Source of the DNA: Candidatus Caldarchaeales archaeon
GTDB lineage: Archaea; Thermoproteota; Nitrososphaeria_A; Caldarchaeales; Calditenuaceae
Assembly (NCBI GenBank): GCA_039630085.1
Contig: JBCNVM010000003.1
Span: 32,001-96,000 of the forward strand
Reading direction: 5' to 3'
Length of the DNA: 64,000 nt
The position numbers were made by a program, and so were the translations under genes. Below are positions 29,367 through 55,605 of the stretch, piece by piece. The first letter of the stretch is position 1; the number at the start of each line of letters is the position of its first letter. The notes below the pieces were generated by a model, which ran no database searches, had not been told where the DNA came from, and saw only the letters and a list, made by a program, of their open reading frames with translations.

Positions 29367-30056
29367 ATGGAACTAGGAGACATCGTCAGGACCGCGGTGC
29401 CGGCCCTGTTGTCGGCTCTGTTGATCTTGGGTGCGGTCGTCCTTTTCCCCGGACTGATACCGGGGACATACAGGGTCACGACCGCGACCGCCCCGATCCC
29501 CGTCTTCATTACGCGGTTCGTGAACCTCACGACGACCCTCACAACCGCCTACCTCGTCGACTCCCGGGGACCTGTCTGGGAGCCCGTGTTCCTGGACCTC
29601 TCGGATAAGCCCGCGGAGGGGACGATAACCGTCCTCAACAGGACGCTGACCAAGGAGAGGCCGGCCTTCGCGATTGTCTTCATAGCCGCCGCGCCCCGCG
29701 GTTATGAGTTCGCAAGCACGGTCAACGGCTTCGTATACAGGCTCGAGGCTAGGGTTGCAAACAAACTAACGGCCGTCGTCGCGGAGGCAGCGCCGCCCGT
29801 CATCCCGGGGGTCAACCGCGAAAACTTCAGAGACCTGCTGATGGAGAGGGCGTTCTCGCCCGTAAACGTCCTGCCGTTCCAGAACCCGAGGAGGACCGAG
29901 ATCTCGCCGGGGCCCTTCGTCCTCCAGAAGGAGCGCGGAGCCTACTCGCCGTACCCGTGGCTCGCGATATGGCCGATTTCGGTCCACTTCCATGGCATCG
30001 AGAGGGACGTCCGGGTGACGGTCACGCTCTCCTATAGCTTGGTCGGGGCGAAGTGA
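29367..30056 (+). CDS. Membrane-anchored or secreted hypothetical protein
   Basis: N-terminal TM, Thr-rich stretch and beta-rich body; its stop overlaps the E1 start. Confidence 0.65.
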   Translation: MELGDIVRTAVPALLSALLILGAVVLFPGLIPGTYRVTTATAPIPVFITRFVNLTTTLTTAYLVDSRGPVWEPVFLDLSDKPAEGTITVLNRTLTKERPAFAIVFIAAAPRGYEFASTVNGFVYRLEARVANKLTAVVAEAAPPVIPGVNRENFRDLLMERAFSPVNVLPFQNPRRTEISPGPFVLQKERGAYSPYPWLAIWPISVHFHGIERDVRVTVTLSYSLVGAK

Positions 30057-30895
30057 CGCAGAAGCTCGCTCGGCGGACGCGGGTCTTCGAAGTCTTCAGG
30101 ATGGACGAGGACCGCTACGAACGACAGAGGAGGTTATGGGACCAGAGGAAGATATCGTCCCTGAGAGTCTTGGTGGGAGGTGCCGGGGCTCTCGGGAACG
30201 AGGTCGTAAAGAACCTAGTCCAGATCGGCGTGAAGAGAGTCTACGTGGTCGATTTCGACAGGGTCGTCCACTCGAACCTGAACAGGTGCCTGTTCTTCAG
30301 AAAGAGCGACGCGACTAAAAGGGCGAAGAAGGTCGACGCGCTGGCGAAAAGGGCCTCGGACCTCAACCCTGATGTGGAGGTCGTACCGATCTTCGGGGAC
30401 ATCCGCGACCTCCCGGGCGACGTGATCAAGGACGTCGACATGGCCCTCGGAGCCTTCGACAACATCTTCGCCAGACTCGTCCTCAACGCGATGTGCTACT
30501 CCAACGGTAAGCCCCTAATCGACGGCGGAATGGAAGGGACGCTCGGAACTGTTCAGGTGGTCCTCCCTCCCGAGAGCCCCTGCGTGGAGTGCGGGATGAG
30601 CGAGCTGGACCTCGAGCACATGTGGGAGAGGATCTCCTGTAGCGGCGACGTTGTCGTCGAGGAGGGCCCGAAGTTGCCCTACATCCCGATGACCGGCGCG
30701 CTCGTCGGCGCGCTTCAGGTCATGGAGACAGTCAAGATAGCCCTCGGCTTCGAGTCCTATAGGTCCTCCGGGAGGTGGAACGAGTCGGTCGGAGAGCCAC
30801 TCGTCGGCAAGTCCCTCCTGATCGACCTGAGGTCTAACCTCGGCTACACCTACGACCTCCACAAGAGGAGCGACTGCAACGTCTGCGCCCTCTGA
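30053..30895 (+). CDS. Ubiquitin-activating enzyme E1-like (ThiF/UBA family)
   Basis: GAGALG, DFDRVVHSNLNR, DNIFAR, DGGMEG..G.VQVVLPPESPCVEC, candidate catalytic Cys in RISCSG, terminal CNVC. Confidence 0.92.
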   Translation: MTQKLARRTRVFEVFRMDEDRYERQRRLWDQRKISSLRVLVGGAGALGNEVVKNLVQIGVKRVYVVDFDRVVHSNLNRCLFFRKSDATKRAKKVDALAKRASDLNPDVEVVPIFGDIRDLPGDVIKDVDMALGAFDNIFARLVLNAMCYSNGKPLIDGGMEGTLGTVQVVLPPESPCVECGMSELDLEHMWERISCSGDVVVEEGPKLPYIPMTGALVGALQVMETVKIALGFESYRSSGRWNESVGEPLVGKSLLIDLRSNLGYTYDLHKRSDCNVCAL

Positions 30896-30984
30896 TAGAA
30901 CGGTCTCAGCGCATGAACCTCTCGCTCGTTTCTCCTCGCGCTCAGCGACAATTTTAATAAGCGCCGGGGATTTTGTATTCACGC

Positions 30985-31398
30985 ATGATGGAAAGGAGGT
31001 CGAGGGCGGGTCTTAGCGAGGCGGTGACCGCGATTCTGCTGGTGGTGATTGGGATCGCGATGGCACTCATGATCTGGCAGTTCTTCACACCACGGCCGAC
31101 GGAGGAGCTGAGGATCGGACCAATCGACGTCTCCGGAGGGGTTGTCGTCTTCACCGCGCAGAACATAGGGAGCGTGGACGCGGAGATAATTGGAGTCGCC
31201 TGCTACACCGCAGGGCAACCTCCGGCGGCCGGGGGTGCGGTGACGCCGCTGGGCGGTGCGGACACCAAGCTCCAGCAAGGCGAATCGAGTACCTTCTCGG
31301 GGAGCTGCGCAGGCGCGGAGCCGGGCAAGCCGATCAACGTGATGGTCTACACCAAGAACAAGGCCTACGGGCCCTTCACGGTCATCGTCAGGTCGTGA
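30985..31398 (+). CDS. Archaeal type IV pilin (probable major pilin)
   Basis: Class III signal RRSRAG/LSEAVTAILLVVIG; QNIGSVD motif; own TATA box and T-rich terminator. Confidence 0.88.
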   Translation: MMERRSRAGLSEAVTAILLVVIGIAMALMIWQFFTPRPTEELRIGPIDVSGGVVVFTAQNIGSVDAEIIGVACYTAGQPPAAGGAVTPLGGADTKLQQGESSTFSGSCAGAEPGKPINVMVYTKNKAYGPFTVIVRS

Positions 31399-31429
31399 GT
31401 CTGAGTCCGCCTCCTCAACGCGACCGGCC

Positions 31430-31526: not shown

Positions 31527-32345
31527 ATGATCATTACCGTGAACGAGTTGACTACTAAGAGGAGCGTCAGGCTGGAAGTAGAACCTGGCCACACGGTGAG
31601 GGCGGTCGTCGAGGAGGTGATGAAGGCGCTGAAGGTTCCGCCGCAGACGACCTATAGGCTGGTGTTGGGCGGGAAGGAGATCGGGCCGGAACTCTTCGAC
31701 AAGACGCTGGGCGAGCTCGGCATTTCGGACGGCGCGGTGATGGACCTCGTCCCGAGGCCCGTCGGCGGGTCGACCCTCCTGCCTAGGGACAAGTTCCTGA
31801 AGAGGCTGGAGAGGGAGGAGGAGGACCTGAGGAGCAGCGGTTTCCCTTTCACCAGACAGGACGTCTGGAGGCCTATGAGCTTCCCTATGGTGTACAGCGC
31901 TGGCTACGAGATGGTCAACGTGGCGGTGAGGTACACTGTCTCCTTCAGGGCTAGGGGGTTCGTCCTAACGAAGAGGGGAATCGAAGAGCAGTGGGACCAC
32001 TCGGCGAGCCTCTACGTCCTCGACTACTATCCCTACATGGACCCTAAGAAGGGCGCACCGATGAGGATATTCTGGGAGAGCGACATCTTCCACCCCAACA
32101 TCTGTCCCGGCCCCCGCTTCAACGGGAACGGACTCGTCTGCTGGAAGATGATCAAGGAGTGGGGGAAGACCTTCTCGCTCGCGACGCTGGTGAGGGGGCT
32201 TCAGCTCCTAGTCGAGAACCCGAACCCGGATGACCCGCTGAGCAAGATACCCATCTGCATGCAGGCAGCGTCCTTCTTCAAGGAGAACCCACACCTCACA
32301 GGCACCTACAGGCCTGAGACCGGGAGCAAGCCAAGAGTCATCTGA
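31527..32345 (+). CDS. Ubiquitin-like domain (ends GG80-81) fused to an E2/UBC domain
   Basis: Beta-grasp pattern YRLVLGGKEI...KTLGELGISDG...LVPRPVGG, then KRLERE, YP..P, FHPNI, GLVCW and NPNPDDPL. Confidence 0.88.
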   Translation: MIITVNELTTKRSVRLEVEPGHTVRAVVEEVMKALKVPPQTTYRLVLGGKEIGPELFDKTLGELGISDGAVMDLVPRPVGGSTLLPRDKFLKRLEREEEDLRSSGFPFTRQDVWRPMSFPMVYSAGYEMVNVAVRYTVSFRARGFVLTKRGIEEQWDHSASLYVLDYYPYMDPKKGAPMRIFWESDIFHPNICPGPRFNGNGLVCWKMIKEWGKTFSLATLVRGLQLLVENPNPDDPLSKIPICMQAASFFKENPHLTGTYRPETGSKPRVI

Positions 32346-32358: not shown

Positions 32359-32850
32359 TTGAGGGGAGAGGAGACCGAAGTTCTCCCCGTCTACATCGAG
32401 CTGGAAGCCCTCGTCGAGGCCGTCAGGCATTGCAGGGAGGGGCTGCCCTACGAGGTCATCGGTTTCTTAGTCGGCGAGCGGCTGAAGTGGAAGGACAAGC
32501 TCTACGTCTTCGTCACCGACAGCGTTAGGGGCAGGTCGGTCTCCACCCGCACCCACGTTGAGTTCGACCGAGACGCGCTCGCGGAGGTCGCGGGGCTCAT
32601 CAGAAGGGGGCACCCGGAGTCGGAGATCGTGGGCTGGTACCACTCTCATCCGGGATACGGCTGCTTCATGTCCCCGACGGACATTCGCTCCCACGTGACC
32701 TCCTTCCCCTATCCCCATCAGGTCGCGCTGGTCATCGACCCGGTAAGAGGGGAGGCCACGTTCTTCAAGGTCGACGAGGACGGGGACTACCGTTCTGTCC
32801 CTTCGGCGGTGGTGAGGAGGTCCCGTGGTCAGGATCGTCGAGGTGCGTGA
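32359..32850 (+). CDS. JAB/MPN+ metalloprotease (Rpn11-like deubiquitinase)
   Basis: EVIGFLVG...VGWYHSHPGYGCFMSPTD...ALVIDP. Confidence 0.93.
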   Translation: MRGEETEVLPVYIELEALVEAVRHCREGLPYEVIGFLVGERLKWKDKLYVFVTDSVRGRSVSTRTHVEFDRDALAEVAGLIRRGHPESEIVGWYHSHPGYGCFMSPTDIRSHVTSFPYPHQVALVIDPVRGEATFFKVDEDGDYRSVPSAVVRRSRGQDRRGA

Positions 32851-32996: not shown

Positions 32997-33776
32997 TCAG
33001 GGGCCCCGTCCTTCCGCGCCCTTTCGAGATATCGCCGCGACGGCAGCCTTCGACTCGTGCAGAGCCTTCGCAAGGACGCGCTCCCTCGGGCCGAGCCTCG
33101 TCCCCAGCGCGCTCAGGGCGAATTCGATCTCCGAGGTGACCAGCCTCGCGACCTCTTCGATCAGTGGCTTGAGGGAGCTCGCGCCCGACTCGTACTCCCT
33201 GAGGAGGACCGCCAAGTCGGCGCCGACGTAGAGGGCCCTGTAGATCGACCTGTCGAGCCTCCTGTAGAGCTTCCTGGAGAGCCTGATCAGCCTCAGCTCC
33301 CAGAAGGCGAGGTCCAGCAGCGCCCGAGCCTCCTGTTCCTTACCGAGGGACTTCAGTATCCCGAAGGACGCGACCGTGCCGACGAACGCCCTGTAGAGCC
33401 TGCCGGCCTCTGTGACCGTGAGGGGGATCAACTTGCTGTTGAGCATGAACGCGACCTGCGCCTCGTCCTTCAGCGTGAGGACCCTCTTCGCCTCCTCACC
33501 GATCGCCTTGGCCAACTCCTCCCTGCTCTGCTGGGCTGCCAGCACCGACGACGACCGCTCTCTGACGTCCGTCCACGACTTGCTCATGGCGAGCATCTTA
33601 TCGAGGAGCGCCCCTATCGAGGACTCCCCTATCAGCGGTGCCTCGGAGACGTAAAGAACGGTCGGAGGCGGTAGGACGTATTGCTTCACCTCTAGGACCT
33701 TGGGCCTGCCTCTCCTCAGCAACTCCCTTCCCCTTCGGACGAAGAAGGAGCCCGGCCAAAGCCTACCACGACTCAT
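32997..33776 (-). CDS. Hypothetical helical protein
   Basis: 259 aa; translationally coupled to the upstream pilin-like gene. Confidence 0.6.
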   Translation of the reverse strand: MSRGRLWPGSFFVRRGRELLRRGRPKVLEVKQYVLPPPTVLYVSEAPLIGESSIGALLDKMLAMSKSWTDVRERSSSVLAAQQSREELAKAIGEEAKRVLTLKDEAQVAFMLNSKLIPLTVTEAGRLYRAFVGTVASFGILKSLGKEQEARALLDLAFWELRLIRLSRKLYRRLDRSIYRALYVGADLAVLLREYESGASSLKPLIEEVARLVTSEIEFALSALGTRLGPRERVLAKALHESKAAVAAISRKGAEGRGP

Positions 33777-34246
33777 CCCCTACTCACGGCCAGGATTCCG
33801 ACCCTGTCTGAGGAACAGGTCAGCCTCGCAGTCCACGCGGAGAACGACCTGGTCGAGTCGTAAGCGCCCCACACGACCGAGAAGAGCCTGTGGCCGATCA
33901 CGACGGTACCGTCGGAGTTCCTGACCAGCTTGACGACCGTGAAGTTCACGGAGACGCCCGGCGGAGCAGCCGACGCGATGATGGCGAGGGCCTCGTCGAC
34001 GGGGACGCCGTCCTCCCGGCACACCAAGGCCTCCATCTGACCACGCTCGGTCAGAGTCGCGACCATCTTGTTGGCGAGCTCCTCGAGGTCGTTCCTCTGC
34101 TCCGAGATCGAGACGGTCTTTATGGAGACGATCTGATAGAAGAGCACGACCCCCAAGACGACGATGAGCGAGGCCAGAATCGCCTCGACGGTCCAAACCA
34201 TCCCGAGACGCCTCGAGCCCCTCGACCTCAAGACGGACCACCCCAC
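33773..34246 (-). CDS. Minor pilin-like protein
   Basis: SRRLG/MVWTVEAILASLIVVLG class III-like signal; one Cys pair. Confidence 0.7.
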   Translation of the reverse strand: MGWSVLRSRGSRRLGMVWTVEAILASLIVVLGVVLFYQIVSIKTVSISEQRNDLEELANKMVATLTERGQMEALVCREDGVPVDEALAIIASAAPPGVSVNFTVVKLVRNSDGTVVIGHRLFSVVWGAYDSTRSFSAWTARLTCSSDRVGILAVSRG

Positions 34247-34968
34247 CAGGCCCAGACCTCCACGCTCAGGGTAATTCCGTTCTCTGTTACGGTCGTCTCC
34301 GAAAGGTACACTGCGTCGGGTGGTATAGAGACCCTAGACGGCTCGACGAACCGGCCCTTTACGAACGCAACCACCAAGTCGGGATACACTGCCGGCACGA
34401 CGTGATACGAGGAATCCGTGAAGACCACAACCGGCGACTCGAAGACGAAAGGCACGATTTCGTAACCTGACTCAACTACCGTCGACCCGCCGTAATGGCA
34501 GAGGCTCGCACTTTCAGAGACCCGTATGGTACCGTCCTCACCGTAGTTCACGAGGTCGGGGTCGAGCCGTAGACCACTCACGTGAACGCCGTATCTCGTC
34601 ACCACTATCGCGCCCCTGCCTTCGGCGGTGCAGGTCGTGTAATCGGACGGGAACGAGAGGGCAACCCCAGGGCCCGACTGAACGATCCTCTGCGTGAACG
34701 AGACCTTGGCGACGAAGTCGACCCTGACTCCCCTGAAGTCGTGGGACGGAGCTACCACGTAGAGCGGGTTCAGGAGGTAGGCCTCCCTTGAAGACCTAGA
34801 GACGAGCGACTTGATGAGGTTGAGGGCTGCCCTCGACTCGGCGCGGACCATCGCGTCCTCGGTGAAGGAGAGATAACTCGAGGCGCCGGAGAGCGCGGAG
34901 AAGACCAGCAAGCCGGCGATTAGCGAGAAGATAGAAACTCCTATGGCCGCGTCGACCACCGCCTCCAT
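34228..34968 (-). CDS. Minor pilin-like protein
   Basis: MEAVVDAAIGVSIFSLIAGLL pilin-like N-terminal helix with no basic leader; beta-rich body. Confidence 0.55.
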   Translation of the reverse strand: MEAVVDAAIGVSIFSLIAGLLVFSALSGASSYLSFTEDAMVRAESRAALNLIKSLVSRSSREAYLLNPLYVVAPSHDFRGVRVDFVAKVSFTQRIVQSGPGVALSFPSDYTTCTAEGRGAIVVTRYGVHVSGLRLDPDLVNYGEDGTIRVSESASLCHYGGSTVVESGYEIVPFVFESPVVVFTDSSYHVVPAVYPDLVVAFVKGRFVEPSRVSIPPDAVYLSETTVTENGITLSVEVWAWWGGPS

Positions 34969-35064: not shown

Positions 35065-35382
35065 ATGAGCGTCGGATTGGAAGACCTGCTCAGGAGGCTG
35101 AGGCTTGAGATAGTCGGCGACTTCAGGCAGTACCTGAACAAGCTCGAGCGGACTGGGGACGGCTCCTGGGAGGTGGTTCTGACCGAGAAGGCGGAGGCCT
35201 TCGCGGGGACGATGGAGTGCCCGGTCGACAGGGAGAAGGTGCGGATCGAGGACGCCGTTCTGTGCCCCATCTGTTACACGCCTTACCACGTCGATTGCGC
35301 CCAGATCCTCGCCAGCAGGTCGGAGAAGTGCTGGAAGTGCGAGCGGTTCGACAGGTTCGACCTGCTTCTGAAGGGGAGGTGA
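35065..35382 (+). CDS. Small RING-finger protein (E3-like, Prok-RING type)
   Basis: CPVD-x11-CPIC-x4-HVDC-x10-CWKC. Confidence 0.75.
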   Translation: MSVGLEDLLRRLRLEIVGDFRQYLNKLERTGDGSWEVVLTEKAEAFAGTMECPVDREKVRIEDAVLCPICYTPYHVDCAQILASRSEKCWKCERFDRFDLLLKGR

Positions 35383-35385: not shown

Positions 35386-36246
35386 ATGATGGGCCTTGAG
35401 CACGAGGCGAGCCGCCGGGTCCTGATCACCCTGCTGACGGACCCGCACAGGTCAGGCAGGACGATCTACTTCGACCCCGACGTGCTCTCGGCGAGACTAG
35501 GCGGCCAAGCGTGGGACCACCTCGAGGCGATGATCCAGCTGGGCGAGAGGGGGCTCATCAGGTTCCACCACGCGAGGGAGGTGGAGCTGCTGTTCAGGTT
35601 CATGCGCGCGAGGGCGAGGCTCGAGCACGTGGCAGGGCTAAGGGACTTAGAGGAGGTCGCCGCCGAGCTAAGGAAGGTCAGGATCCTCGAAAGGGTCGTC
35701 GGGAAGGACCTCGAGGTGATCAGGGATCCGAGGGTGTCCGACCACCTGGATGCGCTTCGGGCACTCTCGGTCCAGCTCGGCAAGCTGCTGAAGCTCCTCG
35801 AGGGGAAGAAACTGGTGAGCAGGGAGGTCTACGAGAGGGTGGCCGCATCGGTGCTGTCCGAGACGGCGAACGTCGTTCAGTCCACGGAGCAAGTCCTCTC
35901 CTCTCTCCGCGCGGCCCTCGCCGAACTCGTGGAGGTGATGAACGTCTTGGTTCAGGAGCGGGCGAGGATATCGGGACTCCGCGATAGGCTCGGCTTCAAC
36001 CTCGAGGAGCTCGACTTAGTGTTGAACTCCTACCTGTCGGGCATTGAGGAGTTCAAGCGCCTCCTCCAGCAGGTCGATCGACTGTTGAGGAGTGCCTTCC
36101 CGAACTGGGACGATGTAATAGGTTCCGCTCAAAGGGTCATCTCTGAGTTCGCGCAAAAGGCGCCTTTCGTTGATGCGGTCCTCAAACAGATAACTGCCAT
36201 AAACGTTATGTTAAGTTCAGGAATCCAGACTGAACTTGGCCGATGA
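35386..36246 (+). CDS. wHTH-like plus coiled-coil protein
   Basis: N-terminal ...LGERGLIRF wing, KLVSREVYERV motif and long heptads; starts 3 nt after the RING gene. Confidence 0.6.
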   Translation: MMGLEHEASRRVLITLLTDPHRSGRTIYFDPDVLSARLGGQAWDHLEAMIQLGERGLIRFHHAREVELLFRFMRARARLEHVAGLRDLEEVAAELRKVRILERVVGKDLEVIRDPRVSDHLDALRALSVQLGKLLKLLEGKKLVSREVYERVAASVLSETANVVQSTEQVLSSLRAALAELVEVMNVLVQERARISGLRDRLGFNLEELDLVLNSYLSGIEEFKRLLQQVDRLLRSAFPNWDDVIGSAQRVISEFAQKAPFVDAVLKQITAINVMLSSGIQTELGR

Positions 36247-37276
36247 GGAACTTCACCCTTTTGACCTCCTCGGTGACCCTCTCGAGGACCTTGAGAGCCC
36301 GTTGGAGCCTCTCGATGGAACCGTTTAAGAAATTAAGGTTGAGGTCGGAGCCAACCCTCAGCAGGCTTCTCATGGCATCGAGCTGCTCGCGCAACCTCTC
36401 GACGCTCCTCTCGAGGACCTCAACATCGGTCTTACGTCTCCGCTTGAGCTCAGAGGCCTTCCTAGTCAACTCTTGGTAGAGGAAGTCGTACTCCTCTTGG
36501 CTGATCTCGCCGATGACGAGCCTCGCCTTGAGGAGCTCGAACTCGGACTTCAGCTCGGCGGGCAAGTCCTCCTGACCCTCGTCCTCGAGGAACTGCTTCG
36601 CGAACGACTCGAGGACCTCCTCGATCACCTCGTCTGACCAAGAAGCTGTCTCTGAGAGCTGCTCTGGACGAAGGTCGCCGATGGTAGTCCTCAGCAGGTC
36701 CTCCTCGAGCTTCTCCCTTACCCTCGAGACGGTCTCCAACGCCTCGCTCCCCAGACCCTTCGACCCCTCGAGCATCACTATCGACTCTTCGACCTCCCTC
36801 AGCGCCCCCAGCAGGTCCTCAATCACCACAGGGTTCCTGTCCTTGGATCCGAGATAGTTGATCAGCGAGGAGATGAGCAGCGACCTCCTCCTTAGCAGGA
36901 CGCCCATGAGGCTCGGCGAGGGCGGGACTTCATCGAGCGACGACCCGGGGATCGAAAGCACCAGCTCCGCCATGACCCTCCTGACGCTCTCGTACTCGTA
37001 CTCGGCGACCTTCCCGGACATGAATCCGTAATCGAGCAGCCGAATCGCTTGGACCAGCATTCCCTTGGCCTCATCGAAGTCGGGGACTCCCGCGACGGTG
37101 ACCAGACCCAAGGACTGCAACCTGATCAGCCCCATCAAGACCTTCAGTTCATCGAGCCTGACGGCCTCCGCGGCCCCCTTGAGGTCCACACGGACTCTTC
37201 CGCCCTTCCTCGGTAGCGAGGTCAGATACTGGATCAGCCTCACGTCCTCTTCCCTTACGCTCAACCCGCAGCTCAC
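36206..37276 (-). CDS. wHTH-like plus coiled-coil protein with SHOCT/CdvA-like motifs
   Basis: LIRLQSLGLVTV wing; SGKVAEYEYESVR and LKARLVIGEISQEEY motifs. Confidence 0.6.
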   Translation of the reverse strand: MSCGLSVREEDVRLIQYLTSLPRKGGRVRVDLKGAAEAVRLDELKVLMGLIRLQSLGLVTVAGVPDFDEAKGMLVQAIRLLDYGFMSGKVAEYEYESVRRVMAELVLSIPGSSLDEVPPSPSLMGVLLRRRSLLISSLINYLGSKDRNPVVIEDLLGALREVEESIVMLEGSKGLGSEALETVSRVREKLEEDLLRTTIGDLRPEQLSETASWSDEVIEEVLESFAKQFLEDEGQEDLPAELKSEFELLKARLVIGEISQEEYDFLYQELTRKASELKRRRKTDVEVLERSVERLREQLDAMRSLLRVGSDLNLNFLNGSIERLQRALKVLERVTEEVKRVKFLIGQVQSGFLNLT

Positions 37277-48200: not shown

Positions 48201-49648
48201 AGTCGCTGCTCGAGGGGATCAAAGGGTTCCTGACCGGTATTAAGGACGCGATTACCGGATTCCTCGACAACATCGTCAACCAGATAAAGAGCGTCGTGAA
48301 CATGATCAAGCAGCTTATCACCTCCCTCGTGAACCAGCTCGTCTCCGCAATCAACAACCTGATCTCCTCCGTCGTCGGAGCGATCCTAGGACCAATACTA
48401 AGCATGGTCGACAGTCTCTTCCAAGGGTTTGGAATTTTCGGCAAGCTGCTCGCGGGGGTAATCAAGGACATGATAACCAACTTCGTCAACGAGCTGATCA
48501 ACGATTTCATTCAGGAGATCCTTGACGGTCTACTGAAGCCGATCAACGAGCTGATCAGCGGACTCGATCAGCTGGTCAACAAGATCATCGAACCCATTAA
48601 CAAGATCAAAGAGGCGTTGACCCGCTGGCATGACCAGATAGTCTCGACCATCGAAGGGTGGCTGAACAACATCCTCAACCCGCTGAGCAACGTCCTCTCG
48701 GCCGCGAAGGCGGACCTCGCCAACGGTCAGATCAGCAGCTTGGTGACCGCTGCGCTCAGGGAGTTCGTGAGCGGCATGACGCGTCCCGTAAGGGGCGCGG
48801 TCGAGGAGGCCGTCAGGAAGCTCAACGAGGCGGAGAGGAAGATACTCGGTTCGCTCATAAGGATCAGGGACTCCATGATCTACGCGAACAACATGCTGAG
48901 GATACCCATCATCGGTAGGGGAGGGGTGCTGCAGGCGACCATCCTGGGTCTCGGTGAGAGCGCTGCCTCTGATGACTACGGACGCCTCGGCACCATAGCG
49001 GTCGACACCAGACCCCTGAAGCTGAAGCCCGGGTGGTACGACCAGTACGAGTTGGTCCTTCACGCCGCCGGGGACCCCTCGGCGCCGATTCCGGCCGACT
49101 TCACCTTGCTCTTCGGACCCCTAGAGGAGGTCAGGGAGCTCTTCGACGCACCCCCGCCGAGCGTCGTTCCCGTCAAGGTAAACGAGATCGGCCCCGCGCT
49201 CAGGGATTGGAGCGTCGACGTCGTGATACTGGGCGACCCGAAGAGGCCGGTAGTTCCTGGAGCATCGGCGACCGCGAGGCTCTTCGTTACGAAGTCCGAC
49301 GGCACCGTTGAGGTGAAGGGGCTAGGCGACCTCACCGGAACCCTCGTCGCACCGTTCTTCCCGTGGCCGATAGAGCAGGGAGAGCTGATCGCACCGTTCT
49401 TCCCGTTCCCGATCGAGCGGGACGCACTCGTGGCGCCCTTCTTCCCGTGGCCGATAGAGCAGGGAGAGCTGATGGCTCCGTTCTTCCCGTTCCCGATCGA
49501 ATACTCAGTCGGAGTCCTGGAGTCGCCCTACAGCGACCCGTCTGCCAGAGCCGTCCCGAGGATCCTGGTGCCCGCCGACACCATGAACGGACCGGTCCTG
49601 ATCTCGCCGTTCTTCCCGTGGCCGATAGAGCAGACAGCTAGGGGGTGA
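45224..49648 (+). CDS. 1474-aa multi-domain membrane/surface protein
   Basis: Sec signal, Pro/Glu linker, several TMs, long amphipathic repeat region and C-terminal APFFP[W/F]PIE repeats. Confidence 0.8.
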   Translation: MKTSRLPLALALLALLAVPAVAENSPLPPGESEDLAVAVAPSGHLMVSYIVAYPIGSLNAVAEALRPTSDGSAVLFISAKKLANNGTAFLEVAGVADEARVGGVARTFASVTGLRFEGTGQTGQFVASATWRDLMRVVEALRPATDGGFSPHLKKELLERFDEATVVISVSRMGWGVTTSLEVRLLKKLQVQSDAREHSVDVLRELGVSELRPARGALLNVILMPPFGTQRFNYEVTPRSVSLRPVAEGIDAYFAMLNGSSVITSLRFGFAYEFGSGALRDLPTDFLKFVERIERAAALVNRTSPPPPASPASPGQEPRPSDEGAEESPEPETPDTGIVDRSPAGGPTEALRRMLPPVEGAGRTVQIDPLHLMVIVVSATGFLAFASLYVRGRGLSRKGAASLVVLLLITLSLALPVLAISAVRAERASGGLESILEVEQFHPSGAPSDLEIPLLFPGFKKIDKVSKTFISFEDINVVATPGLRSPYVPQGYEKLLATLGIDLRLIQVAGLILGGGLNPLGMFKGMTVAHGSTSVFLVNEEVGANVFIAFKARPSSTLKSMLNVINSVYRVGYALYHSTVCFPGDGCLHPIGWSMMVASTLAAVALALIAPGFAVYALASYPVVVNDELYATLSFKDGEWAKDKERLWLAEERYMVSLAILIMILRAPTLSGWKSSENLADIPLTASFHVSSDADSGWKLTELLGVYSGDRGLKVSVDFKDALGIFELLESLFGLFQGAWSSLVSHVAGSLSEQESVLRQIASELRSLKVGNELLVGAASKLDRAVTLLADARLKLGARNCAGALQNVEGARTSIRSAIQDLQPLASDSGIGAVIQHYIRELERVEASLAEYTEQINGLCAPYNFSAEPPTDPETIPDERKLTLSFIVLSATPMVTEAVHYKSSSTISLRAYWGWNPLPGIAYGLEKTVREIFRFAKTVAYNELDRLDGAVNSIAGEVAGTLSRPLDALVGGLVGGPLGDLAGALNQVFGPIKSLLEGIKGFLTGIKDAITGFLDNIVNQIKSVVNMIKQLITSLVNQLVSAINNLISSVVGAILGPILSMVDSLFQGFGIFGKLLAGVIKDMITNFVNELINDFIQEILDGLLKPINELISGLDQLVNKIIEPINKIKEALTRWHDQIVSTIEGWLNNILNPLSNVLSAAKADLANGQISSLVTAALREFVSGMTRPVRGAVEEAVRKLNEAERKILGSLIRIRDSMIYANNMLRIPIIGRGGVLQATILGLGESAASDDYGRLGTIAVDTRPLKLKPGWYDQYELVLHAAGDPSAPIPADFTLLFGPLEEVRELFDAPPPSVVPVKVNEIGPALRDWSVDVVILGDPKRPVVPGASATARLFVTKSDGTVEVKGLGDLTGTLVAPFFPWPIEQGELIAPFFPFPIERDALVAPFFPWPIEQGELMAPFFPFPIEYSVGVLESPYSDPSARAVPRILVPADTMNGPVLISPFFPWPIEQTARG
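49343..49633 (+). repeat. 42-bp (14-aa) tandem repeat x4 plus a fifth terminal copy
   Basis: LVAPFFPWPIEQGE / LIAPFFPFPIERDA / LVAPFFPWPIEQGE / LMAPFFPFPIEYSV ... LISPFFPWPIEQ. Confidence 0.9.
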
Positions 49649-49652
49649 GGAC

Positions 49653-50456
49653 GTGAGGTCGAGGGCAGGGCTCAGCACCGCGGTTCAAACGGCCGCGCTC
49701 ATCGCGATCACCGCCGGCCTCGCCGTTGCGGTCGTGGCGCTCTGGAGGCCGTGGGAGGCCTCAGGGCAGGCCCAGTCGGCCGCGATCGGGGTCGGCGTCC
49801 AGCAGATCCACGACCTCCTGCTCAGGAGAGAGGGAGCTACCGTGCTGTCCCATTCAGTAATCGTGCGTCCGTTCGCGGAGGCACACGTGATAAAGGTTGA
49901 GTGGAAAGGGAGGAGCGTGGTGATACCCGCGGTGGTCAGCGCGATCGAGTACGTGGGGCCGAAGCAGAGGATCCCCGGGATATACTACCTCGAGCGCGGG
50001 GAGGTGGATGTCTTGGGCGACTACATAGCGAGCAGAAAGCTGAACTACACGACCACGGGACTTGACGTGGTGACCTACGCGGTCTACGACGACAGGGAGG
50101 TCAGGATCGTCACCAAGGCGCTCCCCTATGTGTCGTACTCCGTCGACAGGGTGTACAACGACGTCGTGGTGACCGTCATGGTGCGGGTGGTCCTCGTGAC
50201 CCCGCACTACGCCGACCCCGGGGCTTACGAGAGGGTGCTGAAGGACGGGTACGTCGTCCCCCCAGGGGACACGCTGACCTTCAGGCTCAACGCCACCCGG
50301 AGGACGTACTACCAGCTCCCCGAGTCGATCGACGGAGGGTCGCTCAGGGTGTTCGTCGACGGCGTGGAAATCCCCCAGCTCGCTTTCTCCACGAGCGAGA
50401 GGGCGATCTTCAGGGTCTTCGTCGACTACGTGACCGTTATGGTTTGGGCGAGGTGA
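49653..50456 (+). CDS. Type IV pilin-like protein
   Basis: MRSRAG/LSTAVQTAALIAITAG class III signal, the same RSRAG/LS as the pilin at 30985. Confidence 0.8.
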   Translation: MRSRAGLSTAVQTAALIAITAGLAVAVVALWRPWEASGQAQSAAIGVGVQQIHDLLLRREGATVLSHSVIVRPFAEAHVIKVEWKGRSVVIPAVVSAIEYVGPKQRIPGIYYLERGEVDVLGDYIASRKLNYTTTGLDVVTYAVYDDREVRIVTKALPYVSYSVDRVYNDVVVTVMVRVVLVTPHYADPGAYERVLKDGYVVPPGDTLTFRLNATRRTYYQLPESIDGGSLRVFVDGVEIPQLAFSTSERAIFRVFVDYVTVMVWAR

Positions 50457-50461
50457 CCTAA

Positions 50462-50935
50462 GTGACCACCTCGTACACCTACATAGTGACGATCGGTGTT
50501 ATAATGCTGGTGACTTTCTCGACCGCGGCCGTCTTCCTCCAGCAGGTGAGTTCGATAGACCACGCGGCTAAGAGGTCCGCCCTCTCGGTCGCCGCGTCCC
50601 AAGTGCTCTCCGGGATCTGGAGCGCGGTCGAAGAGGTCAGGCTGACCCAGACGGGAAGGGAGTTCAAGTCCGTCTCAGTCGGTTTCCCCTTCAGGGCCGA
50701 GATAGGATTCAGTCCAAAGACCGGAGGGTTGGCGCTATGCGTGACGGGGATGGGAATAACCTACGAGAGGCCCTTGCCGGTCATACAGGGAGTTCAGTAC
50801 GTCCCCTCGGCCTCCGGAGGCGACAGGGTCGGCGTGCTGGTCGAGATGTCGGAAGGGAGGGCCTCGGTGAGGCTGGTCAACGTCAGGAACGACGGAAACC
50901 TGATTTCCGACAGCCCCGGTCTGTGCCTGAGATGA
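50462..50935 (+). CDS. Minor pilin-like protein
   Basis: N-terminal TM followed by an amphipathic helix; Cys pair. Confidence 0.55.
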   Translation: MTTSYTYIVTIGVIMLVTFSTAAVFLQQVSSIDHAAKRSALSVAASQVLSGIWSAVEEVRLTQTGREFKSVSVGFPFRAEIGFSPKTGGLALCVTGMGITYERPLPVIQGVQYVPSASGGDRVGVLVEMSEGRASVRLVNVRNDGNLISDSPGLCLR

Positions 50936-52404
50936 GCGTCAAGGGCCTCGCGCTGGTCGCGCTCCTGACGGCCGCTCTTCTTATTCCGTCGGCCGGAGCC
51001 ACGGAGACGGCGGCCCGCGAGGCCCCGATCGTCATCAGGGCAAAGTTGGAGGTGGACGCATCCTGCTCCGGAGTGATGACGTACCTGGTGGACGCGGGGG
51101 AGGCTAGGAGGGTCGGGCTCGGAAGGCTCTGGCTCCTGCTCCCCAGGGAACCCCTGAGGTGGAGCGCGCAGCCGCAAGTGATCCATGAGGTCTTAGATCT
51201 CCCGGCAGAGTCAGAGGGCAGCAGGGTCTACAGCAACGTGACCTTCGACCTCAGCTCGGTCGAGGCTCTGACGGTCTCCTTCAGGATGGACCACGCGTGC
51301 CTCGTGAACGGTGACAGGGGCCTCCTCCTGACGCCGCTGGTCTCCTACGGCCCGCCTGTGAGGGGCGTGCTCGAGATCACCTTGGAGGGCCTCGTGGAGA
51401 GGTTGAGGTCCGTCGAGCCCTGGACGCCTCACGCGGAGGTCCACAACCGGTCGCTCTCCGTTCGCCACGCGCTCCCCCTCGCCGTCAAAAGGGTCGCGAT
51501 CGACTTCAGGCCCGTTGAGGAGCCCCTCGAGCTCATCGCCTCGAGGGGGTTCAGCGTCAGGACCCACCAGCGTTACGCGGCAGTCGCAGAGGCAATCATC
51601 GACGCCCTAGCGAACGCCAGCGAGTACCTGCGCTCTGTCTTCGGTGGCGAAGTCCCTGAGGTAAGGGTGGAGTTCTTCCTGCCCCGCGACTACCGGTCCG
51701 GCCCCGAGGGCTTCGCGCCCGTGCCGTCGGGGAGCTCGAGGGTGATCGGGCTGAACCTGATCCTCCTCAGGAGGCCTCGGGGGTTCTTGGAGGTGATCGC
51801 GATCCACGAGCTGGTCCACCACTACCTCTTCGAGGTCGGAGTTGATGCAGGCGCGACTTGGTTCCACGAGGGCCTCGCGGTCTATCTCTCCCTAGAGCTC
51901 GGGGAGCGGTTGGGGCTGGAGGGCTCACAGACACTGAGGGAACTGATGAGGGAGGAGGCGTCCCGCTCACGTCAGCTCAGGCTGATCGAGTGGAGACCAG
52001 GCGAGTCCAGGGACAGCGGCTGGTACGCGGCCGCCTTCGCTCTGATCGAGCAACTCTTCAGGCTGGACCCCGAAGGCATGTCGAGAGCCCTCCTCAACCT
52101 TAAGCACAGGATGGGAGGCATATCGTCCGGAGAGGCAGCGGCCGAGCACCTCGCGACACACCTCAACGGAGAGGCGCTGGAGCTGCTCAAGGAGGCCGGA
52201 CTCCTGTCGACCGTGAGGAAGTACACGGAGATCAGCACAGCGTCATCGACCATGACGACGATCGAGACGCGCAGGGCCACCACGGCCTCCGAGCCCTGGA
52301 GCCGAGAGGGGGCTATGGTGATCGACGAGCTGCTTCTTCTGATCGTGTTGACGGCCGCCGCGTTTGCGGTGTTGCTCCTCGCGATAAGGGACGCAAAGTC
52401 CTGA
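50932..52404 (+). CDS. Surface-anchored gluzincin (M1/MA-like) zinc peptidase
   Basis: Signal peptide, IHELVHH...WFHEGLA, Ser/Thr linker and C-terminal TM. Confidence 0.8.
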   Translation: MSVKGLALVALLTAALLIPSAGATETAAREAPIVIRAKLEVDASCSGVMTYLVDAGEARRVGLGRLWLLLPREPLRWSAQPQVIHEVLDLPAESEGSRVYSNVTFDLSSVEALTVSFRMDHACLVNGDRGLLLTPLVSYGPPVRGVLEITLEGLVERLRSVEPWTPHAEVHNRSLSVRHALPLAVKRVAIDFRPVEEPLELIASRGFSVRTHQRYAAVAEAIIDALANASEYLRSVFGGEVPEVRVEFFLPRDYRSGPEGFAPVPSGSSRVIGLNLILLRRPRGFLEVIAIHELVHHYLFEVGVDAGATWFHEGLAVYLSLELGERLGLEGSQTLRELMREEASRSRQLRLIEWRPGESRDSGWYAAAFALIEQLFRLDPEGMSRALLNLKHRMGGISSGEAAAEHLATHLNGEALELLKEAGLLSTVRKYTEISTASSTMTTIETRRATTASEPWSREGAMVIDELLLLIVLTAAAFAVLLLAIRDAKS

Positions 52405-52429: not shown

Positions 52430-53254
52430 TCAGCCCGATGGGCTCTCTACCTGATACCCGAACTCGAGCAACCTGTTCACGTACTCGTTCTTGAGCCTGT
52501 TGTAGACCTGCTCGCTGATCTTCCCGGCCCTGTAGTTCTCCTCGAGGGTCCTAAGGAAGTTCAGGTACTTGACAACCTCCGCCGGAAGCTGCTGGGGCTG
52601 CTCGACCGGGGTCTCACCCCCGGTCACGATCGTCGGCCTTACCTCAGCGGCGATCTCGCGCCGCTCCGTGGGCTCAGGGGCCTCCGCCACCCTCCGGACT
52701 GCTTCCTCCGTGACGCGCTGAACGCCTATCTCCCACGACGACCGGATGCGGGACACGAGGACGTTAAGCCCCATCTTCGGCTTAGTGAGCAGCAGGTAGA
52801 CGACGTAGAGCGAGATGGCCCCACTCCACGCCAGCAGACCTAAAAGGACCGCAGTCGCGGAGGCCAGGGCGATCAGCCCGAACGGGTGCGGGACGACGCC
52901 GTAGACAACTGAGGGCACGGCGATGATAACGGCAAACTTGACCAGGTTTTCCCTCCTGATCGGTATGTTCACGAGCCCCCTCGTGGCCAGGAAGAGGGCG
53001 ACCGCTAAGACGATTACCATCCCTGCGACTCCGGACGTCAGCTGGGCGACAGCGACGAGGAAGAGCGAGAAGACCAGATAGATGATCAGGACGTCCACTC
53101 CCTTCACCATCGAGACGAAGGCCGCCAGGACCCCGATGATGATCAGCGTGAGCACTAGGCTTGAGACGCCGCCGGTGGCATAGGCGGTCGAAGTCAGCAG
53201 GGTGACGAACGTCGCAACGAATATGTCCCGACTCAGGATTTGCTTGAGGTTCAA
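52430..53254 (-). CDS. Multi-TM protein with C-terminal SHOCT/CdvA-like motif
   Basis: About 6 TMs, then LEENYRAGKISEQVYNRLKNEY. Confidence 0.7.
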   Translation of the reverse strand: MNLKQILSRDIFVATFVTLLTSTAYATGGVSSLVLTLIIIGVLAAFVSMVKGVDVLIIYLVFSLFLVAVAQLTSGVAGMVIVLAVALFLATRGLVNIPIRRENLVKFAVIIAVPSVVYGVVPHPFGLIALASATAVLLGLLAWSGAISLYVVYLLLTKPKMGLNVLVSRIRSSWEIGVQRVTEEAVRRVAEAPEPTERREIAAEVRPTIVTGGETPVEQPQQLPAEVVKYLNFLRTLEENYRAGKISEQVYNRLKNEYVNRLLEFGYQVESPSG

Positions 53255-53361
53255 AGGTACTCACGAGACATGCGTGGGGGGCCGTAATTAACGTTTTGAA
53301 GTGACCAGCGGATCGGCGACGCGCTAGTAGGCTTATAATTTCGGAGTGATGTAAATCGGTC

Positions 53362-55605
53362 ATGAGGGCGAAGACGTTCTCTCTGATCCTCCTGATCGCT
53401 ATGATGGTCTCCACCTTCGCGGCCGTTGGGACACCAGCGAGGGCGGAGCAGTCGGAGGCGCCGATAGACCTGCCGATCAGGGCGCCGCTCGAAGTCAACG
53501 TGATAATCGCGGGGTTCTCGAGCCGAGACCTCGGGCTGACGCCCGCACAGCTCCAGAGGGTGCTCTCGCAGCTGGTCAGGAGCGAGGCCATCGCTTACGC
53601 CGGTTTCTTCATGGAGGACCCCTACGTGGTCGCGCTCTTCGACGTGGAGCTGGTAGTGATCGAGGCCGATGCTAGGCTGAACGCGGAGATACGGTCACTG
53701 TACGGACGATTTTCCTACGACCCCGCCGCGCTGTCGATCGACTTGAGAAACGGCTACGTCAGGTATGTGTCGTTCGTCAGGGATGAGTATGGAACTTCTT
53801 TCGCGATCCAGCTGAACGACAGAATGACCGACATCGCGTCGCTCACGCTCGGGTTGGTCTCGCTCACGCATAGATTCCTCCCGCAGATCGCCGATGGATA
53901 CAACGTCTACCTCGTATGCGGACTGCCCTTCACCGGCAACAAGTTTCCCGTTTACTTCGCTTCTGGGCAGACGATCGAGCGCGGAAACGGTATAGGGGTG
54001 GTAGGGATGAACCTCTACGGTGGAATAGGGACGTACAGGTACGTCGTGCTCGACATCTGCGCGATCCCGAACCCATACGGTAACTACGCACCGAGGACGG
54101 AGGAGGACATCGTGAAGTATCTGCCCCCTGCGTTCTACGTGGACCCGCGGGACCAGATCGAGGCGATCGCCATGTACGTTGACGAGATAATAGATAACCT
54201 GTTTGTCAAGAGCCTCCTCTACGTCCCGAGGTATCAGGTGACTTTCCTCTTCGACGTGATAGTTATAGACTTTACAACGACCGGGGGAGGGCTGCCGTTC
54301 ATAGCAGCTAACTTCGTGCCGGAGATATTCGAGTCCTCGATGAGGTGGCTTATGCCGTACAACTTCTACACGAGCAGATTTCACTACAAGACTATAGCGG
54401 AGGTAGCGGCTATGCGACAGGCCATTTCCGTCCAGAGGGGCGTTCAGATAATCGACGTCGAGAGGGCATTCGCGATCGCCGAGAGGACGGGGCTGATCCC
54501 CCCAGCACCACCGGGAGTAACGAGGGTCCCGGTGCTGATCTTCCTCTCCGACGCCGACGTGTACCCGAGCTCGCCGGGAACAATAGGGATAGCTTGGCCC
54601 GACTCTAGCGACCCGAGATATCCCAAGGGAGCGGTCGTGGGGCTGTCATACAGGTTCGTTGAGAGGGAGGGACTGACCCTGGTCACGATCCACGAGGCCG
54701 CTCACACCCTCGGATTGGCCCACCCACACAACGACCTCGACGAGACGAGACAAGAGGTCATTCGGCCGGGCAGGTCGAGGCCGCAGATCACGAGCAGATG
54801 GGTCTTTAGCTGGATAGAGACCGCGATGGCCTACGCCGACCACCCCCAAGTCGTAAACCAGAGGCTGATCTATCTGGGAGCCTATCCGCTGAGGACCTAC
54901 TTCAGCGCCTTCGACCTCGACGCGATCGACAGGGCGGTCGTAACGCTACTGCTCGGGTATTACCTGAACTACAGGGAGGAGATCGGGAAGAAGCTGAATG
55001 AATCAGGCCTCAAACTGAGCGACATACCCGAGGCTGAGAAGCTCCTCAGGGAAGCCGACGAGGCGGCCGTCAACGCGGTTAGACTCTTCAGGGATCACTA
55101 CTACTTCGACAGGTTCGAGTTCGCGGGGCTCGGGGCTCAGCTCGAGACGGCTTTCGACTACGCGTGGAAGGCATTCACCGACATCATAGAGCTCTACGAC
55201 AAGGTCGAGGGCGCGAGGCTCGCGATCGAGTCGGTGAGGCCGCTGATCAAAGAGCTCGAGAGCGAAGTCAGCAACCTGAAGTCGACGGTTGAGAGTCTGA
55301 GGGGACGACTCGACGAAGCGACCTCCCGCGCCGAGCAGCTGCAGAGGTCCCTGAACAGGGAGACGCAGGAGAGGCAGAGAGTTCAACAGGAGCTGGAGCT
55401 GACCAGGGGCGAGCTCTCTAGGGTTAAGACGGAGCTGGAGCTGACCAAGAACAGCCTCTCCGCCGCAAGGGCCGAGGCTAACACCTATCTCTTGCTCGCG
55501 GCGGCGGGAATAGCGGCGGCAGTCGGATCGGCTGCGTTCGCATTAATGAGCAGGCGCGGATCAAGACCGCGCGTCCTCTCCTCGTCCGCGCCAGGGCCGT
55601 CATGA
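53362..55605 (+). CDS. Surface-anchored metzincin zinc protease with coiled-coil stalk
   Basis: Signal peptide, HEAAHTLGLAH, Met-turn-like ETAMAY, coiled coil and C-terminal TM. Confidence 0.8.
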   Translation: MRAKTFSLILLIAMMVSTFAAVGTPARAEQSEAPIDLPIRAPLEVNVIIAGFSSRDLGLTPAQLQRVLSQLVRSEAIAYAGFFMEDPYVVALFDVELVVIEADARLNAEIRSLYGRFSYDPAALSIDLRNGYVRYVSFVRDEYGTSFAIQLNDRMTDIASLTLGLVSLTHRFLPQIADGYNVYLVCGLPFTGNKFPVYFASGQTIERGNGIGVVGMNLYGGIGTYRYVVLDICAIPNPYGNYAPRTEEDIVKYLPPAFYVDPRDQIEAIAMYVDEIIDNLFVKSLLYVPRYQVTFLFDVIVIDFTTTGGGLPFIAANFVPEIFESSMRWLMPYNFYTSRFHYKTIAEVAAMRQAISVQRGVQIIDVERAFAIAERTGLIPPAPPGVTRVPVLIFLSDADVYPSSPGTIGIAWPDSSDPRYPKGAVVGLSYRFVEREGLTLVTIHEAAHTLGLAHPHNDLDETRQEVIRPGRSRPQITSRWVFSWIETAMAYADHPQVVNQRLIYLGAYPLRTYFSAFDLDAIDRAVVTLLLGYYLNYREEIGKKLNESGLKLSDIPEAEKLLREADEAAVNAVRLFRDHYYFDRFEFAGLGAQLETAFDYAWKAFTDIIELYDKVEGARLAIESVRPLIKELESEVSNLKSTVESLRGRLDEATSRAEQLQRSLNRETQERQRVQQELELTRGELSRVKTELELTKNSLSAARAEANTYLLLAAAGIAAAVGSAAFALMSRRGSRPRVLSSSAPGPS

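Follow-up and report, generated by a model that had tools for sequence, protein, structure and literature searches.

The 64,000-nucleotide stretch analysed here (hereafter, the window; part of contig JBCNVM010000003.1 of a Candidatus Caldarchaeales archaeon) contains an island of about 26.3 kb in which the genes of a ubiquitin (Ub)-like conjugation system are interlaced with those of a type IV pilus-like machine. The locus is best explained as an island specific to Calditenuis-like archaea, formerly known as the Aigarchaeota pSL4 group, in which a compact second Ub-like module is now a fixed part of the pilus-like gene cluster. New here are the insertion of the island, the second, specialised system beside a canonical Ub operon, the linkage across four gene orders and the clade specificity. 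An earlier sequence-only reading had listed the genes of such a system in the window. All of them are present among the open reading frames (ORFs) and translations, including a pilin gene between the gene for E1 and that for a fusion of a ubiquitin-like protein (Ubl) with E2 (hereafter, Ubl-E2).

Linkage, insertion and the canonical Ub operon

The Ub-like system is physically tied to the type IV pilus-like locus in four of the six other genomes of the genus (G001, G003, G004 and G006) and on nine of 12 metagenome contigs, in four gene orders overall. Full-length Ubl-E2 fusions were found in four of the 60 other genomes searched, all of the same genus. The metagenome contigs, with GC contents of 47–60%, were retrieved with an alignment of the TadC-like platform protein. 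The nine carry Ubl-E2, the JAMM metalloprotease gene (JAB) and h259, a gene for an all-alpha protein, directly upstream of the pilus ATPase and TadC genes, and they represent three of the four gene orders. A further contig (L138) is too short for the Ub linkage to be judged. The window type of order is common to the source genome (G000), G003, G004 and G006. The second, seen in G001 and on contigs L130–L134, comprises a pilin-like pair, the RING-like and coiled-coil genes, and Ubl-E2 with JAB and h259; the ATPase operon; and g229 with E1, pep747 and the pilin gene. The third is seen on L135 and the fourth on L136, L137 and L139.

Because the interleaving is repeated in four other genomes and nine metagenome contigs, it is not an artefact of assembly. 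The interlocking reaches the operon level, with the pilin gene inside the E1/Ubl-E2 interval and the pilin-like genes pil246 and pil157 chained by overlaps to h259. Ranked by identity to their counterparts in the window, Ubl-E2, ATPase and TadC give the same order of lineages, which fits co-inheritance without module swapping.

The position of the island is as follows.

29326–55629, no single strand: inserted island of ~26.3 kb, between a metallo-beta-lactamase-fold gene (28711–29325) and a uracil-DNA-glycosylase gene (55630–56334)

The interval 29367–55605 holds 23 densely packed genes, as judged from ORFs and translations. The source genome is an assembly of 1.41 Mb in 66 contigs, with a completeness of 89.9%. 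The two flanking genes adjoin each other in all five relatives examined (G001, G002 and G005 of the same genus, G007 and G008 of other genera; L105, L106 and L107 are among the loci compared), and the island is therefore an insertion. The stop of the metallo-beta-lactamase-fold gene overlaps the start of the uracil-DNA-glycosylase gene as ATGA in G001 and G002. In G003, G004 and G006 both the arrangement and the flanks are the same as in the window, and the genome collection includes near-identical loci (L046, L047, L048 and L049). In G001 the full set of Ub and pilus genes is found at another genomic site, with its blocks reordered and a pair of ABC transporter genes absent. The GC fraction is 0.58–0.64 inside the island versus 0.64–0.69 in its flanks.

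A provirus or mobile-element reading was rejected for want of an integrase, a hallmark gene, a tRNA, a junction repeat or a relative on a viral contig. No direct-orientation word of at least eight bases was found common to both island junctions, a tRNA search inside the island gave none, and the Pfam search of the island proteins returned no integrase or virus-hallmark family. The PHROGs search covered 10 of the 23 island proteins and gave only repeat-type tape-measure matches, together with weak ones (E 1e-4 to 9e-3) to short or coiled-coil segments of cc356, p493 and pep747. Neither TadC nor the Ub module was found on IMG/VR contigs, where the sole matches were two weak ones to giant-virus E2 proteins. 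In an excerpt of PMC10547907, the predicted prophage regions of Caldarchaeales metagenome-assembled genomes list a ‘VirB11/archaellum ATPase’, a ‘molybdopterin or thiamine biosynthesis adenylyltransferase’ and ABC proteins. Read by eye, the flank of the G001 island (L038+L039, 28000–40000) encodes a LigT-like 2',3'-cyclic phosphodiesterase, a copper P-type ATPase and an MCM helicase; these kinds of gene are also named for the predicted prophage regions in that excerpt, and the published prophage call may reach into or near the island.

A canonical Ub system is encoded on another contig of the source genome, where the genes of a ubiquitin ending in Gly-Gly (46.5 bits), a full-length E2 (92.8 bits) and an E1 of 403 amino acids (aa) lie side by side. 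This E1 has a ubiquitin-family match at its C-terminus, and an extra JAMM gene lies 20 kb from the operon. Since the canonical Ub-E2-E1 operon lies elsewhere in the genome, the island set is a second, specialised system and not the housekeeping one. Matches were obtained in all 61 genomes of the order that were searched; beyond the full-length fusions and a partial match in G005, these are weak matches of canonical-type E2 and stand-alone Ubl, and a canonical-type E2 match is also seen in the other six genomes of the genus. The sequence-only reading had called for a search for such an operon, and had staked its proposal on two points, both of which have come out in its favour: the linkage is present in relatives, and the island does not hold the only general Ub system of the genome.

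Island and canonical E1 are 44% identical over 165 residues, and the two E2 proteins 31% identical over 75 residues. In a quick tree, which has long branches, the island E1s fall apart from the canonical copy and together with short E1s from other archaeal phyla, in a clade that has 49 short E1s (SH-aLRT 95), with Bathyarchaeia locus L063 and locus L055 as nearest neighbours (SH-aLRT 92). The Caldiarchaeum (C.) subterraneum-type system (Nunoura 2011, Hennell James 2017, Fuchs 2018) reportedly consists of Ub, E1, E2, a small RING finger and an Rpn11-like JAMM protease. The island has these kinds of component, the RING finger as a candidate, and its Gly-Gly-ended beta-grasp modifier matches eukaryotic ubiquitin. 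It differs in that its E1 has 280 aa versus 403 aa in the canonical copy and belongs to another E1 clade in the quick tree, its Ubl is fused to E2, and its genes are dispersed among pilus genes rather than gathered in one operon. The C. subterraneum system has been reconstituted on artificial substrates, as described in an excerpt of PMC6043591.

Components of the conjugation module and origin of the fusion

The enzymes of the module and the genes that accompany them are listed below.

30053–30895, +: E1, compact, 280 aa, without ubiquitin-fold domain; Pfam ThiF 157.2 bits (cut-off 28.1)
31527–32345, +: Ubl-E2 fusion, 272 aa; Ubl aa 1–81 ending Gly80-Gly81; UBC-type E2 aa 82–272 with HPN and Cys205
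32359–32850, +: JAMM/MPN+ metalloprotease (JAB); JAB family 48.8 bits (cut-off 22.5)
35065–35382, +: RING-like zinc finger, 105 aa, candidate E3; Prok-RING_1 23.5 bits, under the cut-off of 29.1
29367–30056, +: g229, 229 aa, with a single hydrophobic segment at the N-terminus; stop codon overlapping the start of E1 by 4 bases
32997–33776, −: h259, all-alpha cytoplasmic protein, no family found; downstream of JAB on the opposite strand
35386–36246, +: cc286, long helical protein; winged-helix-like N-terminus and coiled coil, by eye
36206–37276, −: cc356, long helical protein; winged-helix-like N-terminus and coiled coil, by eye

The toolkit is complete, with intact catalytic motifs in E1, Ubl, E2 and the JAMM protease and a sub-threshold RING-like finger. 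The conserved features of E1 include a GxGxxG nucleotide loop (GAGALG), two CxxC pairs and the Cys of an SC[SGT]G motif, which is the putative catalytic residue. The fusion protein matches UQ_con with 30.9 bits (cut-off 27) and, in a six-frame search, the ubiquitin family with 26.2 bits against a cut-off of 25.4. In comparison with sequences from the PDB, residues 5–84 match ubiquitin and residues 158–240 match eukaryotic E2s. H189-P190-N191 and C205 of the E2 part are invariant among orthologues. Gly80-Gly81 is invariant in nine of nine orthologues and is internal, the next residue being Ser or Ala, after which the E2 begins. By manual count over the nine orthologues, the Ubl is the best-conserved stretch of the fusion, with 66 of 81 positions invariant versus 106 of 191 in the E2 part. 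The C-terminal run of the Ubl is K59-TLGELGISDGAVMDLVPRPVGG, in which the last Arg precedes Pro, so that trypsin would leave approximately 22 residues on a substrate lysine and not a Gly-Gly remnant; the diGly proteomics suggested in the sequence-only reading would therefore fail with this protease.

The fusion can be set against homologous loci outside the clade. Sets of JAB, E1 and E2 genes are found at 55 loci (L050–L104) of Asgard archaea (Promethearchaeota and others), Thermoplasmatota, Micrarchaeota, Bathyarchaeia and untitled archaea, with tblastn identities to the island of 26–44% for E1, 21–48% for E2 and 25–41% for JAB. In all eight Thermoplasmatota and Micrarchaeota loci that were read, the Ubl has a gene of its own immediately ahead of E2, and in seven of them it ends exactly in Gly-Gly-stop. 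In the Calditenuis clade Ser or Ala replaces the stop of the Ubl, and the frame continues into the same E2 N-terminus in nine of nine orthologues. The comparison of these sequences indicates that the stop codon which once followed the Gly-Gly of the Ubl was lost to give the fusion, and the locus shows that a Ubl-E2 polyprotein can arise through the loss of one stop codon.

The JAMM protease, whose H-x-H-x7-S-x2-D motif is intact and kept in five orthologues, always adjoins Ubl-E2 in the genomes and metagenome contigs that have the module. It is a candidate for the enzyme that processes the fusion as well as a candidate deconjugase. As given in excerpts of two papers, C. subterraneum Rpn11 cleaves a Ub precursor exactly after Gly-Gly (PMC6043591), and in the bacterial Bil system BilC cleaves a Ubl-GFP fusion, the Ubl being pre-processed by the JAMM protease (PMC10557695). 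Processing of the island fusion by its neighbouring JAMM protease is a natural inference from this ability of Rpn11 and BilC to cut Ubl precursors and fusions.

In the RING-like protein, C52, C67, C70, H75, C78, C89 and C92 are invariant in five orthologues, which makes seven Cys/His and not eight. The nearest PDB folds to its low-confidence model (pLDDT 62) are RING and U-box E3s, with probabilities of 0.97–1.00 and a best E of only 0.013. The genes cc286 and cc356 accompany the RING gene in every gene order that includes it. The N-termini of their products have a weak likeness to each other (hhalign probability 24%); that they could be kin of the folded C-terminal domain of paralogous pilus ATPases was considered and rejected (hhalign 1–2%).

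The adjacency of g229 and E1 is kept in the rearranged G001 island, and no family match to g229 was found in Pfam, PHROGs, NCBIfam or PADLOC. In each of the four gene orders, h259 comes after JAB and is encoded on the opposite strand. Its product has a conserved P-[KR]-V-[VL] motif at the N-terminus; it has no family match in Pfam, PHROGs or PADLOC, and no usable match in the Atlas.

The compact outside loci have homologous E1, E2 and JAB with the same E2 core, and those of Thermoplasmatota, Micrarchaeota and Bathyarchaeia share a basic E2 C-terminal tail with the island. They differ in having no pilus genes nearby, in keeping Ubl and E2 separate in the eight loci read, and in a RING that terminates a coiled-coil protein of 316–435 aa, whereas the island RING is a 105-aa protein. 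The domains of L063 and L055, read by eye, form one winged helix-turn-helix/coiled-coil/RING protein in place of the separate RING and coiled-coil proteins.

By lineage, in a comparison that took in L050–L102, the E2 tails read ...[KRG]-P-R-V-[IV] in Calditenuis (window 32330–32345) and K-P-[RK]-[IV]-[ILV] in Thermoplasmatota and Micrarchaeota. The Asgard tail has an acidic run and then D-[IV]-I-I-[IV]-D-D, which we take to resemble a SUMO-interaction-type strand. At L063 the tail of E2, RKPIVRG, is almost identical to RRPIVRG, the cytoplasmic tail of the membrane protein encoded next to it.

The G005 contig L045, which is the same as L055 (6.8 kb), has a GC content of 44% versus 59% for the G005 pilus contig. 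It is syntenic gene for gene with Bathyarchaeia L063, in the order secreted membrane protein, Ubl, E1, E2, JAB, Thr-rich membrane protein and coiled-coil RING. This contig is probably foreign to the G005 bin, or else a transferred element, and was left out of the Calditenuis counts.

The pilus-like machine and its membrane proteins

The remaining features of the island are those of the pilus-like machine and of proteins predicted to lie in or at the membrane.

30985–31398, +: archaeal type IV pilin, 137 aa, candidate major pilin; between E1 and Ubl-E2
33773–34246, −: pil157, pilin-like; one N-terminal hydrophobic segment; DUF7288 26.9 bits versus a cut-off of 27
34228–34968, −: pil246, pilin-like; one N-terminal hydrophobic segment
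37334–38857, −: ABC permease, paired with the ABC ATPase
38854–39657, −: ABC ATPase; ABC_tran 93.3 bits
39735–41531, +: PilB/FlaI-family ATPase; T2SSE 79.1 bits (cut-off 24.9)
41535–43196, +: TadC/PilC-like platform; T2SSF 31.8 bits (cut-off 25.2) in two stretches; seven hydrophobic segments
43198–52404, +: operon after TadC (p493, p183, giant, p267, p157, pep555); ORFs overlapping or abutting, with N-terminal hydrophobic segments
45224–49648, +: giant, 1474 aa, multi-pass; five hydrophobic segments
50932 (probable start) to the operon end at 52404, +: pep555, membrane-anchored HExxH protein; HExxH in 4/4 orthologues
52430–53254, −: m274, multi-pass membrane protein with cytoplasmic helical tail; kept in the G001 island
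53362–55605, +: pep747, signal-anchored; HExxHxxGxxH, coiled coil and C-terminal membrane anchor; kept in the G001 island

The pilus ATPase lineage is set apart by its C-terminus. From approximately aa 500 to 598 (window 41230–41531) it has a Lys-rich tail with two conserved motifs, found in 12 of 12 orthologues versus none of 11 paralogous loci. The motifs lie around K524-P-K526 and L564-x-P-P-x-V-x-K571, in which K524, K526 and K571 are invariant. The tail is probably disordered, and the 11 paralogous ATPases end in a folded C-terminal domain at the corresponding position. In NCBIfam, the assembly core of ATPase and platform comes closest to BasE/FlaI and UpsF/BasF, with BasE and FlaI as the best models for the ATPase, and every score is far below its equivalog cut-off.

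The predicted structure of the product of 30985–31398 identifies it as a real archaeal pilin. The model (pLDDT 81.7) has a long N-terminal helix and a beta-sandwich, and the top PDB matches are Pyrobaculum type IV pili (8fk7_A, E 4.3e-4; 6w8u_A, TM 0.62) from P. calidifontis and P. arsenaticum. Among seven orthologues with 72–94% identity the basic leader is variable, and from the invariant Gly9 onwards there is a conserved G-[LI]-S-E-A-V-T followed by a hydrophobic helix. The leader motif R-A-G-L-S of p267 is common to this pilin. The other pilin-like genes, six in number, were assigned by one N-terminal hydrophobic segment each, plus the borderline DUF7288 match for one. The pil157/pil246 pair is divergent from the RING gene also in G001 and on L130–L134. 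A single Peptidase_A24 match (44.4 bits; G000:C23:113247-113573) indicates a prepilin peptidase on the same contig, outside both the island and the window.

The ABC pair is restricted to the gene order of G000, G003, G004 and G006, and it was not detected on any of the 12 metagenome contigs. A similar pair stands next to a paralogous pilus ATPase in two other genera (G008, L122+L123; G014, L124), with its ATPase 69–72% and its permease 53–55% identical to those of the island; adjacency of ABC and pilus genes thus recurs without Ub genes.

In comparison to other archaeal type IV pilus loci (Ups, Aap, the bindosome Bas and the archaellum), the island has the same PilB/FlaI ATPase, TadC/PilC platform and pilin of helix plus beta-sandwich. 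Beyond these it has the Ub module, the multi-pass protein of 1474 aa and two membrane proteins with HExxH. Residues 811–1237 of the giant protein match many phage tape-measure profiles (PHROGs best E 1.6e-15), probably through helical repeats, and five copies of PFFP[WF]PIE are seen in its C-terminal area.

The calls of the sequence-only reading fared unevenly over this gene set. E1, Ubl-E2 and JAB score above their Pfam cut-offs with catalytic motifs intact, and the ATPase of the ABC exporter, the pilus ATPase and the TadC-like platform are likewise upheld by their Pfam matches. The RING call gains from the seven invariant Cys/His and the RING/U-box fold neighbours, and loses by the Prok-RING_1 score. 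One of the pilins has structural support from its model, and the six others are candidates, with the hydrophobic segment as their main basis. As for the two surface peptidases, the HExxH-type motifs are conserved, and neither pep555 nor pep747 has a peptidase family in Pfam or a sequence match in the PDB; the assignment as peptidases by sequence was dropped, leaving the HExxH and HExxHxxGxxH motifs.

Coupling of the two modules and its alternatives

Functional coupling of the Ub-like module to the pilus machine is the best reading of the gene linkage, and one that we hold with about even confidence. Thus we infer that the cascade may modify or control the pilus machinery, as the sequence-only reading proposed. 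More tentatively, a dedicated Ubl cascade with a self-processing Ubl-E2 polyprotein could tag the Lys-rich tail of the ATPase, or the tails of membrane partners, and so switch the assembly or turnover of the filament machine. In the working proposed for functional coupling, the adjacent JAMM protease would cut the Ubl-E2 polyprotein after Gly81 to yield a Gly-Gly-ended Ubl and free E2; the short E1 would adenylate the Ubl and hand it to Cys205 of E2; and the RING-like finger, with the two coiled-coil proteins as a specificity factor, would steer the Ubl to lysines on the cytoplasmic face of the machine. The preferred target would be the Lys-rich tail unique to the island ATPase lineage, with TadC loops or the cytoplasmic tails of island membrane proteins as alternatives. 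Conjugation of the Ubl could then tune how the machine assembles, acts or turns over, with reversal by the JAMM protease. Regulation of the machine or its membrane partners from the cytoplasmic side is favoured because conjugation is cytoplasmic and the ATPase lineage has its Lys-rich tail.

A complex prediction for Ubl aa 1–81 with the ATPase tail (aa 500–598) gave a score of 0.12 (mark 0.32), which weighs neither way on binding. The motif [KR]-P-[KR]-[VI] is found in the tails of E2, the ATPase and pep747 and at the N-terminus of h259, four occurrences versus 1.07 expected in 8569 island residues. With a Poisson P of 0.023 for a pattern picked post hoc, it is kept as an idea and not as evidence.

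What archaeal eukaryote-like ubiquitin systems act on, and which physiological role they have, is a question that this locus helps to frame. One cell has two such systems, one of them tied by conserved linkage to a small, defined set of candidate targets, and the question of what archaeal ubiquitin does becomes a testable one with a short list of proteins. If the proposed cascade is right, a prokaryote would have a ubiquitin system aimed at a defined target in the cell, neither viral nor proteostatic, that evolved beside a general Ub system. The locus also shows that a prokaryote can have paralogous Ub systems that become specialised, which in eukaryotes has happened on a massive scale. Were there no functional link, it would still offer a clear case of a surface-structure island among Calditenuis-like archaea.

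Several observations weigh against coupling. The association of Ub and pilus genes is real and stable, yet it is the invention of a single clade. The search for pilus genes around the 55 homologous loci was made by tblastn and by phmmer with four ATPase queries and one TadC query, and in none of the 55 was a T2SSE or TadC homologue found within up to 10 kb on each side. The cross-lineage neighbourhood comparison suggested in the sequence-only reading therefore bears it out within the Calditenuis-like clade and fails it beyond, Asgard and Bathyarchaeia loci included. Ub genes are also missing from all five paralogous pilus loci that were read in other Caldarchaeales, where the closest pilus ATPases have 32–37% identity (tblastn). 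Inside the clade, E1 is not seen on the type C and D contigs (lineages of L135 and L136), whose ends come before it could appear. The near-identical contigs L140 and L141, which represent one lineage, have the pilus core but carry transposase-like fragments and the gene of a large secreted protein at the place taken elsewhere by the Ub genes, and no Ub gene was found within 1.4–3.3 kb upstream or approximately 2.2 kb downstream. The core can evidently stand without adjacent Ub genes, since this lineage has it alone. With regard to mechanism, the RING assignment is sub-threshold in the Pfam search and has no PDB fold neighbour at E≤0.001, and pilins are unlikely targets because conjugation is cytoplasmic only, pilins are exported and the leaders seen here are without lysine. 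Finally, modules carried on one block that moves as a whole would stay linked in the absence of a functional tie too.

Directly upstream of the pilus ATPase on these two contigs (L140 845–1376; L141 2674–3205) are two overlapping ORFs that resemble, by eye, fragments of an IS-type transposase.

The main alternative builds on such linkage within a moving block. The Ub-like and pilus modules could be independent cargo of one transposable or recombining island, with the Ub system acting on other proteins of the cell. The block is indeed inserted, and at a different site in G001; the same Ub family is without pilus genes at all 55 other loci; the L140/L141 core lacks adjacent Ub genes; and the ABC pair reveals that the content of the island is variable. 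Against this, the operon-level interleaving survives four gene orders, in lineages whose TadC is 69–93% identical to that of the window and whose GC content is 50–62%. Under such shuffling unrelated modules would be expected to part or to be lost singly, and only a single case of this was seen. There is, moreover, no integrase, att-like repeat or tRNA target to explain selfish movement. On balance we consider independent cargo rather unlikely.

Archaeal viruses use pili as receptors. A further alternative is defence, in which a Bil-like conjugation of Ubl to viral proteins would act on viruses that use the pilus as a receptor, or the pilus would be guarded as an entry port. Like Bil and type II CBASS (Cap2/Cap3), the island encodes E1, E2, a JAMM protease and Ubl together, and Bil modifies a virion structural protein according to an excerpt of PMC10557695; the island is also inserted and varies by lineage. 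It differs from those systems in being archaeal and in having a eukaryote-like UBC E2 and a RING-like finger, and it has no defence context and only generic matches to defence profiles. The PADLOC matches are limited to the adenylation domain (best 57.8 bits, versus 157 for Pfam ThiF) and JAB (28.2 bits), with none for E2, RING, the coiled-coil proteins, h259, g229 or the other island proteins, and no known defence genes were seen in the island with Pfam or PADLOC. The Ubl is near-invariant across lineages, unlike proteins in an arms race. A defence role thus appears improbable. Chance juxtaposition, misassembly or service as the only general Ub system of the genome is hardly credible, since the linkage recurs in four independent genome assemblies and nine metagenome contigs, the canonical operon is separate, and nothing was found in favour of such an origin.

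The literature search, whose coverage leaves out most subscription journals, returned no paper linking a ubiquitin-like system to an archaeal pilus locus. The words ubiquitin, ThiF and JAB are absent, by a term search, from the text of an archaeal type IV pilus census (PMC4858521). As presented in excerpts, Grau-Bové et al. (PMC4327156) had already tallied complete Ub toolkits, along with numerous RING genes, in genomes of the pSL4 group without genomic context, and Beam et al. (PMC4681859) described a highly transcribed pilus system in Ca. Calditenuis aerorheumensis, which may or may not be that of the island.

The large secreted proteins encoded beside the Ub genes of Bathyarchaeia locus L063 (3354–6020) and downstream of the pilus core on the two contigs that have this core alone (L140 12922–14901; L141 14634–16655) have N-terminal regions that appear alike by eye.

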